DNA of 64,000 nucleotides from Octopus vulgaris (lineage: Eukaryota). The stretch covers positions 62,682,001 through 62,746,000 of the forward strand of contig OX597824.1 of the NCBI GenBank assembly GCA_951406725.2, read 5' to 3'. Shown in pieces: positions 9,632 to 37,476 of this stretch. Numbering within the stretch: position 1 is the stretch's first letter; each line of letters begins with the position of its first letter. Under the pieces are notes generated by a model that was given only the letters and a program-made list of their open reading frames with translations, was not told the origin of the DNA and did not search any database. Made by a program: the position numbers and the translations under genes.

Positions 9632-11003
9632 CGTGTGAAACAGAGAGATGAGATTTAAAAATGGTGACATATTCAAAGTAAATGCAGATATGAACTGCCA
9701 GACGCAGAACGTTATGTACTGCATAACCTGCCCCACGTGCAAGGAGAATTACGTAGGTGAAACTGGTAATTATTTGTGCCAGCGAGCCAGGATTCACCGA
9801 CAACATATTCGGCAGGAAGAACTACGCAAAATACCACTAAGTACACACCTAGGTACATGTGGAGAAGGAAAATTTAAGATCTTTCCCTTCTACAAATGTC
9901 CGAAGAACGACACCTCTTTCAGGAGGAATATGGACAAATATTTCATAGCTAAGTTCTCCCCCAAATTAAATGGCTGAAACTTTACTCATCATACATTAAA
10001 GGACAAATCTTTCGATTTACAATATAATATAGTAGAACATTTAATATGTGTGTGTATATATATATAGGTGTGTGTATATATATATATATTACCTGTTATA
10101 TACATTATATTGTTTTTGTAATTTACTTGATCTTTACTTGCCAATTGTCATTCTAATTTTAACCTTCCTATGATATGCAATTTTCAAGATGGTGTAATTT
10201 GATTGTTCATTTTGAATCGATAGAAGGTGGTTTTTTTCTAATATTTCATGTGTAAGCATGTATATATATATATATAGTGACATTGAAGGACACATCTTTC
10301 GATTTACAATCTAATATAGTAGAACATTTAGTATAAGTATGTATATGTATATATATGTGTGTGTATACATATATATATATTGCCTGTTATATACATTATA
10401 TTATTTTTATAATTTACTTCCATCTTTACTTTTTAATTGTCACTTTAATTTTAACTTTCCTATGATATACAATTTTCAAGATGGTATAATTTAGTTGTTC
10501 ATTTTGAACCGATAAAAGGTTTTTTTTCAAATATTTCATGTATAAGTCTGTGTATATATATGTAGTGGAATAAATATCAACACAAATTTTTTTCCCCTTC
10601 CTCCTTTATTTTTCTTTTCCCTTTTCTCTTTTTGTCTCTCTCCCCTTCTCCAAACACACAGAGACACACAGACACACGCACACACACACGCACACACACA
10701 CACGCACACACACAAACACACACAAACACACACGGACACACAGACACACACACACCTCCACAAACGATCATAAAAAGTGGAAAGAGTTCTTTGACCCCAA
10801 ACGGCATTTGACCATCCTCAAAATGATAAAAGGAGGTGTAATTTATGGCCTGCCTACCTACCACCACACACTCAGTGACACTGAAGTGGTCAAAGCTGAA
10901 ATTCTTAGAAACCCCTTGGAGTCAGTGTTCTGTCCAGCAGACCAAAGGAAATCCTTCTTCTTCCCTCTCCCTTCCCCTCTTTATCTTTAGCCTCAGACAC
11001 AAA

Positions 11004-12144: not shown

Positions 12145-13920
12145 CTGTCTGTGTGTGTGTGTGTATGTGTGTGTGCGTGTTTGTGTGATGTGTATAAAGT
12201 TCGTGCTACTGCATAGTCAACGATGTGATAATTTATTTGTCCAAATTTATTCTATAAGTGATGAGGAATAAAACACATAACGGCTGCTTCGGCACACACC
12301 TTGATAGGCTTGTCAACGTGTGGTATGCATTGGAATTATTTTTGCTGGAATGTTGAAAATGTACACGTTGTAATTGGCTTCGTATTGAGTTAGATAATTT
12401 TTTGCTGTCTTATCTATGAGTGAACTCGAGCATTCTGTGCGTACGTATGTGTGTGTGTTGTTTGTGAATGTATATGAGCGCGCACGCTCTTGTCTCTTAA
12501 TGTATGTTCGTGCATCTTTAGAAGTGTATTGCAATGCATGTATTATGGAACACATGCATGGCTAAAGATATAGCAATTGTACTTCTAAAATTACTGATTC
12601 GAAAATAGAAATGATTCTACATAAAGGAAAAATGATATTGGCATGTGTGCGTATATATATAAGGAGATGAGTAGTACCAAATTACCATTCCTGGATATAA
12701 TGGTAATTAAAAAAGACACCACCATCACCACAGATATATACTATAAACACACAGACACACATCAATACCTACATTTTAAGTCGTGCCATCCACCACATAC
12801 AAAACGTAACATCCCATACTGCCTAGCCAGAAGAATTTGTACTATTGTAGAAGATGCAAATATCAGGAACAAACGCCTAATAGAACTAAGAGAATTTTTG
12901 CTCAAACAAAAATACCCATCTCTACTTATAGAAAATGGCATACAGCGGGCTATAAAAATACCTATACAACAACTTAGGACAACCCAAGGAAGAGGAAAAC
13001 AAGAACAAGTCATACCATTCATAGTGACACACAACCCATGTCACCAGAATATCTTCAACATTGCCAAAGCAAACCTACCAATCATTGCCCAAAGTAATGA
13101 ATTAAAAGACATAATCAAGGATCGAGCTATGGTGCTTAGTAAAAGACAGCCTAAAAACTTGAAAACATTACTAACAAAGGCAAAATTTGACCTCAGCAAC
13201 AAAGACCAAACATTCACGGTATCTAAATGCAATGATAGCCGATGTGGCACATGCCAATTCATACATACCGGTCAATATATAAACACAAAAACCGGGAAAA
13301 TATTCACAAACGCGAATATGAACTGCAAAAGCAGAAATTTAATTTACTGCATCAAATGCCCAAATTGTGAAGAAATATATGTAGGTCAGACGGGAAACGC
13401 ACTATTAGAACGCTCACGTGTACACCGGCAACAGATTAGAGACCCAGAGGTCCGTCAGATACCTTTGAGTAACCACCTAGCAACATGTGGTCGGAAAATA
13501 TATATAATATTTCCATTCTACAAATTACACAGCCCAAGTGAAATCGAGAGGAAAATCAGAGAAAAGAATTTTATTGATAAATTCGAACCCAAGCTAAATA
13601 AGCAATAATAATAATACTTAGAGGTATTACTTCCACTGCTACGACCATGACCACTAACAACAACAACAATACTAAAGGTGATCAAGACGAAGATAGCAGG
13701 AAAATTATCTTATTTAGGGTTAAAAGTTCTATTGCCACCACCATCACCACTAGCAACAATAATTAAGGTGCTGACAATGATGATGATGACAATTGAACTA
13801 TAAAAATATAAAAATCTCTGACAAAGGATATTTACAACATTTCTAAAAATAACCCAACAATTGCTGCTTCGGCCAGGGTCAAGATACAGGACTCTTGACC
13901 TGTCCAACAAAGCGTGATGC

Positions 13921-14070
13921 CTAAACCAATCAGCTCAACCAACCAATCAGCTTAAGTAATTGAGTGATACTACACACTGATTGGTCAGAATACAGTTTGC
14001 AAAACCTAGCACTCTGGAGCCTACCCAGCTGTATTTATAGCACAGAATCACTCATCTTGCTACAGTCAAA
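13921..14070 (+). promoter_or_regulatory. Putative Pol II promoter in pseudo-LTR (second copy ~18195-18344)
   Basis: Two AACCAATCAG CCAAT boxes (~13924, ~13941), an inverted CTGATTGG (~13977) and TATTTATA at 14032-14039. Confidence 0.55.
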
Positions 14071-14102
14071 AATTGTGAAGCATGACTGTCAACACTACTA
14101 CA

Positions 14103-14147
14103 TGAACCCGAAGATTGCAGAATTCAATGCATGAAAGTACTAGTTCA
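14103..14147 (+). ncRNA. Minimal type I hammerhead ribozyme (variant core) in 5' pseudo-LTR
   Basis: TGAAC-CCGAAGA-T-TGCA-gaattcaa-TGCA-T-GAAA-GTAC-TA-GTTCA. 5-bp stem I, stem II and palindromic stem III AGTACT. Deviations: U4->C and a U.U pair closing stem II. Confidence 0.7.
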
Positions 14148-14354
14148 ATCAGAATGAATATTTAACATTCTACTATTTCATTTTATTTTATTCAATTATA
14201 ATATATTATCTTATAATATATCATTATAAGATTGTAAATAAAACGTGAAAATCAGACAAGGTTGGAATTCTTTTTATTAATATATTCTTCTATACACAAT
14301 CACACACACCCACATATATATATATATCTATATTCCTATTGTGTATATGCCAAC

Positions 14355-15648
14355 ATGTCTGGAAAGCAACAAACAAAATTAACAGAATCCGAAAGAATTC
14401 TAATAGAAATTTCATCGAAATTATCAACACTCATCACGATGATTGACACACAATCCTCTATTTTAAAGGAAATAGAAAAACAGTCTACAGACGGAAAACT
14501 TGGAAATGAACACATAAACTCTGAAATTAAGAATTTAGCTGAAATGATACCAACAATTATAAAATCTACAAGAGAAAGCCTACCACAACCTCCTTGGATG
14601 TCAGAAATAAACGAAAGAAATCTGGAAAAAGAGGCACACCGAAAAAGAGAAGAGATACAGAAGACATGGAAAAAAACTCCTTAACATAAGAAAACAAAAC
14701 TTCTGGAAGGCATATAAATGCGAAAAATATGCTGAAATACATTCGAAATGGATATCTTTAGCGGCACCCATACTTCCTCGGAAGTACCTAATTAAAGAAA
14801 TTGCAGGAGAACCAGAGGAAGAAACTAAACTTCGATGGGACCTTGGTTTGATAAAATTCAGGACCGACATCTCCATTACCCTGTCTAAACAATCCCGCTA
14901 CAAAGCCAAATACGAAGCTATCGATGATCAAATCAGAGATGAAATATCCAAACTAACGACCGGCAATATAGCAGAAAAAATGCGAGAACTATGGATCAGA
15001 GATATCTCAAAAGAAGAAAGCAGATCAAGAAAGTTTTGGCAGCGGAAACAATTATTTCTCGACAAATATGCTACAAATTACGGTAAAGACACCAGAACTC
15101 CGAGAAATAGCATTAAAAGTGGACAACCTCACCAACGCAACATACACCAGAACACGTGGCAACATGAACACCCGTTTCACCACGAATCGAAGACGAACTA
15201 CGGTAAGAACTCTTCCCATTTTGTATGCAAACACCCTAATGCACACAACATGAACAAAAAGCACAAACAAAATAGATATTGTTTTGAACAGACCATTAGC
15301 AGTAGAAATAACAGGAGATCATTTTCAAGACCTCAACAGAGATTACCCACAAGAAACTGGACAAAAAACCGATCTAGATCTAGAAGTAAACCCAGATCAT
15401 TTCTCCAGGTGGTTAAAAACAATGCTAACAAGAAATTGAAAAGTAGCATACATAATACCAAAAACAAGACAGAAAACATAACGAAACCAAGTAAAGTACC
15501 ACAACCAAAACGCAAAATTCATCAAGCAAACATCAACAGGAATATAAATCATAACCAGAAAAAAATCCATTTTTTTACGTCAGGACAACAAACACCGGAG
15601 AAAGAAAAAATCCAAGAGGAAACATACCCCAAACAACTGAACGTATAG
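14355..15648 (+). CDS. PLE upstream ORF1 (helical N-terminus, Arg/Lys/Asn-rich C-terminus), interrupted by one frameshift in the A7 run 14670-14676
   Basis: ATG 14355 (MSGKQQTKL...). Removing one A joins it to the open frame LLNIRKQNFWKAY...PILPRKYLIK...IKFRTD... that ends at 15648. Confidence 0.6.
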
Positions 15649-17882
15649 ATCCTAAAATAATTAATTTATCAAAAAGAGATCTTGACAATGATGAAATCCA
15701 ACTTCTGTCAAAAGGACTGAAATTCACACCTACACCAACAGCCAACCACCAAGAATTAAAGGAGGATATCCAAAAATTCTGTCGAAAATTACGACTTGTA
15801 GAATTCTTCGCTAACAAAAGTAATGAGATTGATGAATCCCTAGTAAGGAATAAATCAAATTTCACCCCACCAAAAGGAAGAAATAACTACCTTGACCAAT
15901 ACATTGATATCCTGTCTAAATTTCCCCTTAGACGCAATACCAATGTTAGGCCAAACATTAGCAAATCAGAGATGTCTGCATGTAAACGTATACAAAACGA
16001 TCAAACAATAATAATTAAACAAGCAGATAAAGGTGGTGCAATTGTTATTATGGATACCGAATACTATAAGGATTTGGTTGAAGACCAACTGAAGGATACA
16101 ACCTTCTATTGTGAAATACCCGCAAATATAGACCACCACATCATGAAAAAGATCAACAACCTGATTTCAACACACCACAACTCACTTACGGATAATGAAA
16201 AAGACTACATCACCAATTTTGAACCAAAACCCAGCAACTTCTACGGCTTACCAAAAATACACAAATCAAAAAACATTCAACAGGCAGTAAAAGAACAAGA
16301 AAGTGAGTACATAAAATTATTACATCCAAAAGACCTAAAACTTAGACCTATTATAGCTGGTCCAGCATGCCCTACACACCGTCTAAGCAATTTTATTGAC
16401 ATTGTTTTGAAACCACTATGTACTTACATACCAAGTTTCATCAGGGATGACATCGACTTCCTGTCCCATCTTCCCAAAACAACAGAAACAAATTCAGTTT
16501 TGCTAAGTTTTGATGTGGTAAGCCTCTACACCAATATTCCACACGATTTAGGAATAAAGGCGATTAAATACTGGTTAGAAAAACATAGAGAAGTGATTCC
16601 CAGCAGATTCACAGTGCCATTTATATTAGACACAGTCAAACTTATTCTAGAAAATAACACATTCTTCTTCAATGGAAAGAATTACATCCAAATTAGAGGC
16701 ACGGCGATGGGAACGAGGTTTGCTCCCGTTTACGCCAACTCTGTAATGGGATACTTAGAAGAACAACTCTACCAAGAGGTGGAGGTAAACTATGGCACTG
16801 GATTTAGAAAGTATATTGAAAAGGCATGGAAGAGATACCTAGACGACTGTTTCATAATCTGGACAGAATCTCTAAATACTCTGGAAGAGTTCAATATCCT
16901 CCTGAACAACCTACACCCATCTCTCAAATTTACAAAGGAGATGAGTAGTACCAAATTACCATTCCTGGATATAATGGTAATTAAAAAAGACACCACCATC
17001 ACCACAGATATATACTATAAACACACAGACACACATCAATACCTACATTTTAAGTCGTGCCATCCACCACATACAAAACGTAACATCCCATACTGCCTAG
17101 CCAGAAGAATTTGTACTATTGTAGAAGATGCAAATATCAGGAACAAACGCCTAATAGAACTAAGAGAATTTTTGCTCAAACAAAAATACCCATCTCTACT
17201 TATAGAAAATGGCATACAGCGGGCTATAAAAATACCTATACAACAACTTAGGACAACCCAAGGAAGAGGAAAACAAGAACAAGTCATACCATTCATAGTG
17301 ACACACAACCCATGTCACCAGAATATCTTCAACATTGCCAAAGCAAACCTACCAATCATTGCCCAAAGTAATGAATTAAAAGACATAATCAAGGATCGAG
17401 CTATGGTGCTTAGTAAAAGACAGCCTAAAAACTTGAAAACATTACTAACAAAGGCAAAATTTGACCTCAGCAACAAAGACCAAACATTCACGGTATCTAA
17501 ATGCAATGATAGCCGATGTGGCACATGCCAATTCATACATACCGGTCAATATATAAACACAAAAACCGGGAAAATATTCACAAACGCGAATATGAACTGC
17601 AAAAGCAGAAATTTAATTTACTGCATCAAATGCCCAAATTGTGAAGAAATATATGTAGGTCAGACGGGAAACGCACTATTAGAACGCTCACGTGTACACC
17701 GGCAACAGATTAGAGACCCAGAGGTCCGTCAGATACCTTTGAGTAACCACCTAGCAACATGTGGTCGGAAAATATATATAATATTTCCATTCTACAAATT
17801 ACACAGCCCAAGTGAAATCGAGAGGAAAATCAGAGAAAAGAATTTTATTGATAAATTCGAACCCAAGCTAAATAAGCAATAA
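15555..17882 (+). CDS. PLE reverse transcriptase + GIY-YIG endonuclease (ORF2; open from 15555, first ATG 15972)
   Basis: IINLS...LLSKGLKFTPTP, KQADKGGAIVIMD, FYGLPKIHK, LRPIIAG, SFDVVSLYTNIP, GTAMGTRFAPVYAN, WKRYLDDCF, LPFLDI, linker CNDSRCGTC, LIYCIKCPNC-EEIYVGQT, FEPKLN. Confidence 0.95.
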   Translation, partial: PEKNPFFYVRTTNTGERKNPRGNIPQTTERIDPKIINLSKRDLDNDEIQLLSKGLKFTPTPTANHQELKEDIQKFCRKLRLVEFFANKSNEIDESLVRNKSNFTPPKGRNNYLDQYIDILSKFPLRRNTNVRPNISKSEMSACKRIQNDQTIIIKQADKGGAIVIMDTEYYKDLVEDQLKDTTFYCEIPANIDHHIMKKINNLISTHHNSLTDNEKDYITNFEPKPSNFYGLPKIHKSKNIQQAVKEQESEYIKLLHPKDLKLRPIIAGPACPTHRLSNFIDIVLKPLCTYIPSFIRDDIDFLSHLPKTTETNSVLLSFDVVSLYTNIPHDLGIKAIKYWLEKHREVIPSRFTVPFILDTVKLILENNTFFFNGKNYIQIRGTAMGTRFAPVYANSVMGYLEEQLYQEVEVNYGTGFRKYIEKAWKRYLDDCFIIWTESLNTLEEFNILLNNLHPSLKFTKEMSSTKLPFLDIMVIKKDTTITTDIYYKHTDTHQYLHFKSCHPPHTKRNIPYCLARRICTIVEDANIRNKRLIELREFLLKQKYPSLLIENGIQRAIKIPIQQLRTTQGRGKQEQVIPFIVTHNPCHQNIFNIAKANLPIIAQSNELKDIIKDRAMVLSKRQPKNLKTLLTKAKFDLSNKDQTFTVSKCNDSRCGTCQFIHTGQYINTKTGKIFTNANMNCKSRNLIYCIKCPNCEEIYVGQTGNALLERSRVHRQQIRDPEVRQIPLSNHLATCGRKIYIIFPFYKLHSPSEIERKIREKNFIDKFEPKLNKQ

Positions 17883-18599
17883 TAATAATACTTAGAGGTA
17901 TTACTTCCACTGCTACGACCATGACCACTAACAACAACAACAATACTAAAGGTGATCAAGACGAAGATAGCAGGAAAATTATCTTATTTAGGGTTAAAAG
18001 TTCTATTGCCACCACCATCACCACTAGCAACAATAATTAAGGTGCTGACAATGATGATGATGACAATTGAAATATAAAAATATAAAAATCTCTGACAAAG
18101 GATATTTACAACATTTCTAAAAATAACCCAACAATTGCTGCTTCGGCCAGGGTCAAGATACAGGACTCTTGACCTGTCCAACAAAGCGTGATGCCTAAAC
18201 CAATCAGCTCAACCAACCAATCAGCTTAAGTAATTGAGTGATACTACACACTGATTGGTCAGAATACAGTTTGCAAAACCTAGCACTCTGGAGCCTACCC
18301 AGCTGTATTTATAGCACAGAATCACTCATCTTGCTACAGTCAAAAATTGTGAAGCATGACTGTCAACACTACTACATGAACCCGAAGATTGCAGAATTCA
18401 ATGCATGAAAGTACTAGTTCAATCAGAATGAATATTTAACATTCTACTATTTCATTTTATTTTATTCAATTATAATATATTATCTTATAATATATCATTA
18501 TAAGATTGTAAATAAAACGTGAAAATCAGACAAGGTTGGAATTCTTTTTATTAATATATTCTTCTATACACAATCACACACACCACATATATATATATA

Positions 18600-18606
<7 letters not shown>
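16935..18606 (+). repeat. 3' pseudo-LTR
   Basis: Near-identical to 12661-14333, followed by (TA)n. Confidence 0.95.
18377..18421 (+). ncRNA. Minimal type I hammerhead ribozyme, second identical copy
   Basis: Identical to 14103-14147. Confidence 0.7.
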
Positions 18607-36729: not shown

Positions 36730-36761
<32 letters not shown>

Positions 36762-36774
<13 letters not shown>

Positions 36775-36971
36775 TTCGAGACAAAACCACTATTTTGCAA
36801 AACAAGCAAGGAAAGACTTAATCAATACATAAAAATTTTTAATATAAAGAAATAAACCGCCACTACAATCGTTTCATGTCTTCAATGACATTCGTCAGGT
36901 GGATTTTCGATCTCCTAATCTGTTTTAATTTATGAAGTCTTCATTAAATTAAAACAGATTATTCTAATATT

Positions 36972-37026
<55 letters not shown>

Positions 37027-37089
37027 GAGATCGAAAATTAACCCACCTGACATATACTGCTGGTCTAATTAACTGTATCTATTTTATTA

Positions 37090-37157
<68 letters not shown>

Positions 37158-37431
37158 ATTATGTATTTTATAACTTTAAGCGATTTGTACTGTACCATGG
37201 TTTTATTATTATTTTTCATCTCCATAGTGTTAGCCTTTTTTTATAAAAAACTTTCTTTATATTAAAAATTTTATACATGTATTGATTAAGTCTGTTTCCT
37301 TGTACTTGTATTATTTTGCAAAATAGTGGTTTTGTCTCGTAATTAATATTATATAATATTTTACTATAAAATTGGATTTAATCCTAAATCTGTATCTCAA
37401 TTTTCCCTGTAAATTTGGATTTATTCCCTAA

Positions 37432-37437
<6 letters not shown>
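36762..37437 (+). mobile_element. PLE pseudo-LTR remnant with inverted 5' copy
   Basis: 36762-36918 is the reverse complement of 37022-37355 (with insertions). Unpaired tail to ~37437, (TA)n flanks, HHR in the left arm. Confidence 0.65.
36860..36902 (-). ncRNA. Type I hammerhead ribozyme, canonical core
   Basis: CCAC-CTGACGA-ATGTC-attgaa-GACAT-GAAAC-gatt-GTA-GTGG. All core nucleotides, 4-bp stem I, 5-bp stem II, minimal quasi-palindromic stem III and a GUA cleavage triplet. Confidence 0.8.

Positions 37438-37476
<39 letters not shown>

Follow-up and report, generated by a model that had tools for sequence, protein, structure and literature searches.

Genomic copies of a hammerhead-bearing, two-ORF Penelope-like element of Octopus vulgaris point to a re-entered, possibly circular RNA template

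Self-cleavage by hammerhead ribozymes, ligation of the released RNA to circles and reverse transcription over more than one unit were proposed for Penelope-like elements (PLEs) by Cervera and de la Peña in 2014 (PMC4209133), and the circle model was repeated in a review (PMC6765202). A literature search found no direct demonstration of a circle for an autonomous PLE, and the role of the PLE hammerhead and the rebuilding of partial tandems in each cycle have been an open question since 2014. The element described here is an endonuclease-containing (EN+) PLE of Octopus vulgaris located in a 64,000-nucleotide (nt) stretch of contig OX597824.1 (positions 62,682,001 to 62,746,000; the window, to which all coordinates refer). 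An earlier note on this stretch had proposed that two hammerhead motifs could excise a unit-length, possibly circular RNA. The circle interpretation is partly supported and already in print, and the shapes of the genomic copies add new indirect support. The family also allows a direct test, as it is young, has dozens of intact copies and an inferred start site, and carries natural U4 and C4 alleles of the ribozyme core.

Like the PLE hammerheads described in 2014, the octopus motif is present in both repeats, has a short stem I and a palindromic stem III, and is predicted to act as a dimer; unlike them, it has C instead of U at core position 4 (U4C), fixed in a young subfamily, and U·U in place of their highly conserved G10.1-C11.1 pair with a bulge (PMC4209133), a variant that may have been described already. 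Beyond that study, genomic copy statistics here bear on the template. PAc, the Poseidon PLE of the green anole (Frangieh et al. 2024, PMC11167929), likewise has two adjacent internal reverse transcriptase (RT) start sites, an optional tail, AT-rich targets primed on both strands and a hammerhead upstream of the RT start sites, and its tail signature has been explained by internal RT initiation. However, PAc has one open reading frame (ORF) overlapping the hammerhead, whereas the octopus element has a 5' untranslated region (UTR), two ORFs and a zinc-finger-like linker, and its tails, unlike those of PAc, differ by ~48 nt and terminate in stretches rich in UA that match the target. The C-terminal GIY-YIG endonuclease, the CX2-5CxxC linker, the (TA)n targets and the tandem and inverted arms are shared with Neptune and Nematis (Craig et al. 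2021, PMC8557442), but canonical EN+ PLEs are described there as single-ORF elements. Metazoan non-LTR (long terminal repeat) retrozymes also carry tandem type I hammerheads; they are small non-coding repeats with demonstrated circular RNA intermediates, whereas the octopus element is 4.3 kb long and coding and its circle is predicted (PMC7229834; bioRxiv 10.64898/2026.07.22.740005).

The features of the insertion are as follows.

12661 to 18606, + strand: whole insertion, consisting of 1482 nt of a 5'-truncated unit, a full unit and a ~190-nt 3' tail into (TA)n; the 3' boundary at ~18606 is blurred by the (TA)n microsatellite
12661 to 14310, + strand: 5' partial tandem copy (pseudo-LTR), with one mismatch to 16935-18584
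13926 to 14040, + strand: promoter-like region (CCAAT at 13926 and 13943, ATTGG at 13980, TATA-like TTTATAG at 14034), its function suggested by position
14062, + strand: inferred transcription start, based on one run X5 contig with an adaptor-like loose end and on genomic 5' ends at this site
14103 to 14147, + strand: 5' minimal type I hammerhead motif with a U4C core, predicted cut 14142/14143
14237 to 14242, + strand: AATAAA, again at 18511-18516; putative poly(A) signal 95 nt past the predicted cut, upstream of both priming sites
14278 to 14333, + strand: two AT-rich stretches, ending at +143 and ~+191, which match the two 3' ends of family copies; putative internal RT priming sites against (TA)n targets
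14355 to 15648, + strand: ORF1, 430 amino acids (aa) in intact copies, with a predicted helical N-terminal 240 aa and a basic low-confidence tail; broken in the window copy
15555 to 17882, + strand: ORF2, 775 codons stop to stop, with GLKF, DKG, RT (YLDD), CX4CX2C linker and GIY-YIG with CxxC
15570 to 15576, + strand: slippery heptamer, T TTT TTT as read in frame with ORF1; a -1 frameshift into ORF2 is predicted here
18377 to 18421, + strand: 3' minimal hammerhead motif, identical to the 5' motif, predicted cut 18416/18417

The start of ORF1 gave 90 genomic matches, all of which were fetched, in 83 stretches that included 74 arms covering all or nearly all of a unit (one of the 74 was misclassed owing to a small deletion near the cut). 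Fifty-two of these arms run upstream past the start site at 14062 and 11 stop inside the unit. A linear RNA reaching from start to end cannot be the template of the 52 arms; copies of more than one unit indicate that the template was re-entered at its 3' end once its 5' end had been reached. A further unit was survived by 5 of 52 arms, as compared with ~73 of 690 on the first pass, 690 being an estimate (749 matches minus internal copies). Similar survival on both passes is as expected of an endless template. The longest product seen, at G000:C23:4574200-4599700 (L174-L176), is a single insertion with roughly three units on one strand and just under three on the opposite strand, and has private alleles common to its arms.

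At doubly covered sites, 84 private alleles were found in the 74 young loci: 38 were present in all copies of the locus, 8 in some and 38 in one, so that 46 of the 84 occur in more than one copy of their own locus. The window copy's own 17046C lies in both its copies.

The two hammerhead folds are identical over 45 nt and 4274 nt apart, as the earlier note had stated. Both lie in a 1650-nt repeat (12661-14310 and 16935-18584), and hence their identity is not independent evidence. Each motif consists of stem I TGAAC/GTTCA, the core CCGAAGA, a U·U at 10.1-11.1, stem II TGCA/TGCA and GAAA, and the palindromic stem III claimed for it is present as a loopless AGTACT. In the minimum free energy structure of the monomer only stems I and II form (-5.3 kcal/mol), whereas in a co-fold of two copies the AGUACU palindromes pair (-17.0 kcal/mol). 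Within its natural 5' context the pairing probability is only 0.10-0.13 for stem I and 0.66-0.87 for stem II. With relaxed hammerhead criteria, a scan of the window on both strands returned three matches, the two PLE motifs and one unrelated motif, and an Rfam search of 13500-14500 gave no hammerhead match at E<=5. The TATA-like box, placed ~65 nt upstream in the earlier note, starts at 14034, 69 nt before the 14103 motif.

The core had been described as non-canonical, and either a natural variant or inactive. It is a natural variant: exact-pattern counts in the genome were 1112 for CCGAAGA, which is family-wide, 12 for CTGAAGA and 5 for CCAAAGA, and decay is excluded. The canonical CTGAAGA, which was to be looked for in other copies, is further present in 342 copies of a sister subfamily (~88-95% identical near the repeat), and a near-identical contig from organism B has T at the same core position. 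Canonical-core sister copies (L093-L110) lack 68 nt of the 3' UTR, equivalent to window positions 17897-17964. Older families, for which 263 matches were obtained (reversed control, 13) with a search pattern that included the AGTACT palindrome, have a CTGATGA core, stem I TAAAC/GTTTA and stem II TGCG/CGCA or TGCA/TGCA; 30 copies were fetched, and the U·U pair is present in 24 of the 27 that carry this module. With a core consensus of CUGAnGA...GAAA...UH, position 4 is C in 1112 copies and U in the sister and older families. U4C thus arose recently and has become fixed in the subfamily with the greatest amplification. CpG decay was considered as the origin of the CTGA copies; the counts (12 versus 5) would allow it, but it was rejected because all but one of the 12 (11 of 12) belong to older subfamilies as diverged copies.

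Compensatory changes between subfamilies are G-C/A-U in stem I and A-U/G-C in stem II. Covariation of these stems was found at 2 of 9 pairs, with 98% of cells paired among 11 hand-picked sequences; this amounts to some two events, and for the stem II pair CpG decay is a confounder. On these sequence comparisons, the motif is classed as a genuine, conserved PLE hammerhead. A viroid hammerhead with U4C is weaker in vitro and still sufficient in vivo (PMC3088659).

The transcription start is placed at 14062, 28 nt past the TATA-like box and 81 nt before the predicted cut. In the run X5 contig 15 loose letters precede this position, which we take to be a template-switching adaptor. Breaks at 14062 were shown by 226 genomic pattern matches, and 28 of 30 sampled were true 5' ends; the U4C family accounted for 15 of the 30. 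Six AUGs lie between 14062 and the start of ORF1 at 14355, four of them 5' of the predicted cut. At L146, L133, L148 and L149 the start-site junctions are preceded by an A run or by several short duplicates of the start sequence, which suggests template jumps at the cap end. The 3' ends of copies are fixed at +143 or ~+191 past the predicted cut, in AT-rich stretches able to pair with the (TA)n target, and 21 of 26 inverted pairs combine one end of each kind (p 0.0004). Contig ends near +117 to +121 (X7, X20) were rejected as too weak evidence for polyadenylation, and cyclic 4301-nt contigs (X1, X6) were rejected as proof of a circle, since tandem DNA or terminally redundant linear RNA collapses alike.

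Deletions in the 37 nt before the predicted cut were found in 30 copies, 18 of which have them within 11 nt of the cut, on its 5' side; among those that pass the start site the proportion is 9 of 10. The 35 nt before the start site contain three deletions and one insertion among ~750 arms, and an upstream control stretch two deletions of at least 2 nt.

The following mechanism is proposed. A capped transcript from 14062 would carry both hammerhead motifs. In a fraction of the molecules the motifs would likely pair via the AGUACU palindrome and cut slowly, U4C reducing cleavage and not abolishing it. The cut would free a unit-length RNA, which is likely circularised or else has its two ends bridged by the RT, and more than one round of copying on it would rebuild the promoter-bearing partial tandem. 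The endonuclease may cut both strands of the (TA)n target, each end then priming at one of the two UA-rich sites that lie inside the same RNA. Capped RNA that stays uncut would serve as mRNA for ORF1 and for an ORF1-RT-EN fusion made by -1 frameshifting, and, together with lone pseudo-LTR transcripts, which have no partner ribozyme, might yield the short cap-ended copies. That the template junction is hammerhead-defined, by a ligated circle or an end-to-end jump, has in our view an even chance. The full reading is more tentative, with a probability of about 0.3: an autonomous coding retrotransposon that replicates via a ribozyme-made 4.27-kb circular RNA and rolling-circle target-primed reverse transcription from both target ends, with the weakened U4C core tuning the split between mRNA and circle, in a large PLE lineage with a Gag-like helical ORF1 and an ORF1-RT-EN fusion made by a conserved U_UUU_UUA -1 frameshift. 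A cut-to-cut circle would then supply the re-entered template of the genomic copies.

Several observations weigh against this reading, in which cleavage and the circle are predictions from sequence and copy shapes. Ten of the 74 full-unit arms stop at the start site or at most 37 nt short of it, and ~110 of ~1100 young copies end at the cap, whereas hardly any end at the cut, which indicates that many templates were uncut (or bridged) capped RNA. A search of the same type at the cut, with a pattern that leaves out most sister copies, gave 11 matches (two plain 5' ends, five deletions ending at the cut and four others), as compared with two and four at control offsets; the excess over the two offsets is not significant (7 versus 1 and 4, p 0.07). 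The deletion hot spot was delimited after looking at the data, 20 of its 30 copies are short arms ending near the cap, and it may reflect slippage induced by RNA structure. The most amplified subfamily bears the weakened core. Private alleles look neutral, purifying selection on them not having been found (52 of 206 synonymous), and gene conversion could thus explain part of the allele sharing. In the anole PLE cleavage is dispensable in vitro and no RNA-seq ends were seen at the cut (PMC11167929), and Naiads, which lack canonical hammerheads, spread all the same (PMC8557442).

A retrovirus-like strand transfer through terminal redundancy accounts for much of these data as well. In this model the RT starts close to the 5' end of the uncut mRNA and runs to the cap, and at every pass the cDNA is transferred by annealing to the identical 3' repeat of the same RNA; the hammerhead would be dispensable, or used for translation or RNA pairing. 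Shared alleles and memoryless lengths agree equally well with such transfer, the stop at the start site is strong on the first pass and similar in rate on the second (10 of 62), the junctions L133, L148 and L149 show short re-priming duplications, and U4C is fixed in the most successful subfamily. Moreover, AATAAA precedes both priming sites, and hence an RNA that is polyadenylated carries these sites at the 5' end only. However, crossings of the start site are almost free of the scars that cluster at the hammerhead, and diverged families have retained the core, the stems and the palindrome. Where a short arm stops at the start site, its inverted partner nearly always does so too, which fits a shared short template better than independent failed jumps. 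Strand transfer is a possible, if doubtful, explanation. A long linear RNA that reads through from donors with several units or from host promoters further upstream, with tandem copies later homogenised by gene conversion (the scenario of PMC11167929), is unlikely. Multi-unit loci do exist (4 among the 90 matches to the ORF1 start), the private alleles are close to neutral and one of the shared alleles is a stop, but most private alleles of multi-unit loci occur in no other of the 74 loci. Several within-locus alleles do recur in other loci, which marks them as lineage alleles, and among coding alleles found in several loci synonymous changes are over-represented (14 of 29, p 0.005). Read-through would also shrink copies in each generation, and it does not predict equal survival per pass. 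It is very improbable that cleavage serves translation only, by removing the cap and four of the six upstream AUGs and permitting cap-independent initiation. The position of these AUGs is in keeping with that role, and self-cleavage in a viral UTR can drive cap-independent translation (PMC13725137), but copies of more than one unit would be left unexplained.

The insertion is a partial-tandem PLE with the motifs in its direct repeats. ORF2 matches Pfam RVT_1 with E 2e-6 (27.9 bits, below the 29.6 cut-off) and GIY-YIG with E 3e-5 (above the cut-off). Cysteines of the endonuclease lie between GIY and YIG (IYCIKCPNC...YVG), and the RT-EN linker CX4CX2C (CNDSRCGTC at 17502) fits the CX2-5CxxC of Neptune and Nematis. 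Copies are flanked by (TA)n microsatellites, as in the Neptune clade. The RT with a C-terminal GIY-YIG, the tandem or inverted pseudo-LTRs with an optional 3' tail and the hammerhead in the pseudo-LTR are those of EN+ PLEs, and, by its sequence, the element is an EN+ PLE of the Neptune/Nematis type, differing from the canonical single-ORF form in its two separate ORFs. With a coding unit of 4.27 kb it does not resemble the small non-coding tandem unit of a non-LTR retrozyme, and a short retrozyme-like derivative, considered because of a pile-up at -452 in sister copies, was ruled out, as the pile-up is caused by the 68-nt indel. The family is ~99.7% identical, and the host genome is 2.8 Gb. 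The unit of 4274 nt applies to the window copy, which is lengthened by indels; the family period is usually 4271-4273 nt. Likewise, a transcript from 14062 would contain both ribozymes, as had been suggested, but not both intact ORFs, because one extra A in the run 14670-14676 stops ORF1 of the window copy after 109 codons.

A separate 430-aa ORF1 and an open ORF2 are present in 42 of 73 full units. The two frames overlap in the -1 register at the heptamer, and the first Met of ORF2 is residue 140, after the conserved GLKF motif. The junction is kept in 53 of 55 copies, the other two being fused by an A added just upstream; four of the full units (L183, L209 and two more) are fused by single-base indels, natural insertions that give one frame of ~1200 codons. 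In four relatives (82-87% identity) the register is unchanged and the heptamer reads T TTT TTA, as the search pattern required. A profile search with ORF1 gave 343 clusters at E<=1e-10; the best 150 are of at most 706 aa, and the named homologues are from bivalves. Read from protein sequences, xF[L/F] occurs within the last 60 residues in 75 of 85 homologues of 330-500 aa, as compared with 9 in the preceding 60, and x can take a codon ending in U in 74 of the 75. The motif is likely the protein footprint of U_UUU_UUA and points to a conserved -1 frameshift.

Folding, for simple hairpins only, gave no stable stimulating structure (-3 to -11 kcal/mol). An intron joining ORF1 to ORF2 was rejected, as three candidate donors with the acceptor at 15583 miss the ORF2 frame (by eye) and no skip was seen in contigs. 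No fused longer ORF1 homologue was found among 3381 candidates, which is weak evidence. ORF1 gave no Pfam match and no usable Atlas match; its predicted structure is helical over residues 11-241 (mean predicted local distance difference test score 62, predicted template modelling score 0.40) and gave no fold match at E<=0.001.

A literature search for a described -1 frameshift in EN+ PLEs returned only the legend to Fig. 1 of Craig et al., with an ORF1 set apart by a frameshift and a pseudoknot (PMC8557442), and a two-ORF Neptune consensus without mention of a frameshift in the available text (PMC12602865). An ORF1-RT frameshift in EN+ PLEs may thus be partly known already. The element of that legend probably belongs to the EN-minus Athena. 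If real and new for EN+ PLEs, a conserved frameshift would change the single-ORF picture, and the RT genes of these elements would be routinely mis-annotated.

Two further parts of the window contain PLE sequences. At 9657-9971 a GIY-YIG fragment, 55% identical to the C-terminus of ORF2, adjoins a ~290-nt repeated unit at 10000-10560 and is classed as a remnant of another PLE family. A second, unrelated type I hammerhead motif lies on the minus strand at 36859-36903, with a CTGACGA core, a 5-bp stem II and a near-palindromic stem III. It sits in a short inverted pair between (TA)n tracts (~36760-37440) and is probably a truncated insertion of another PLE family.

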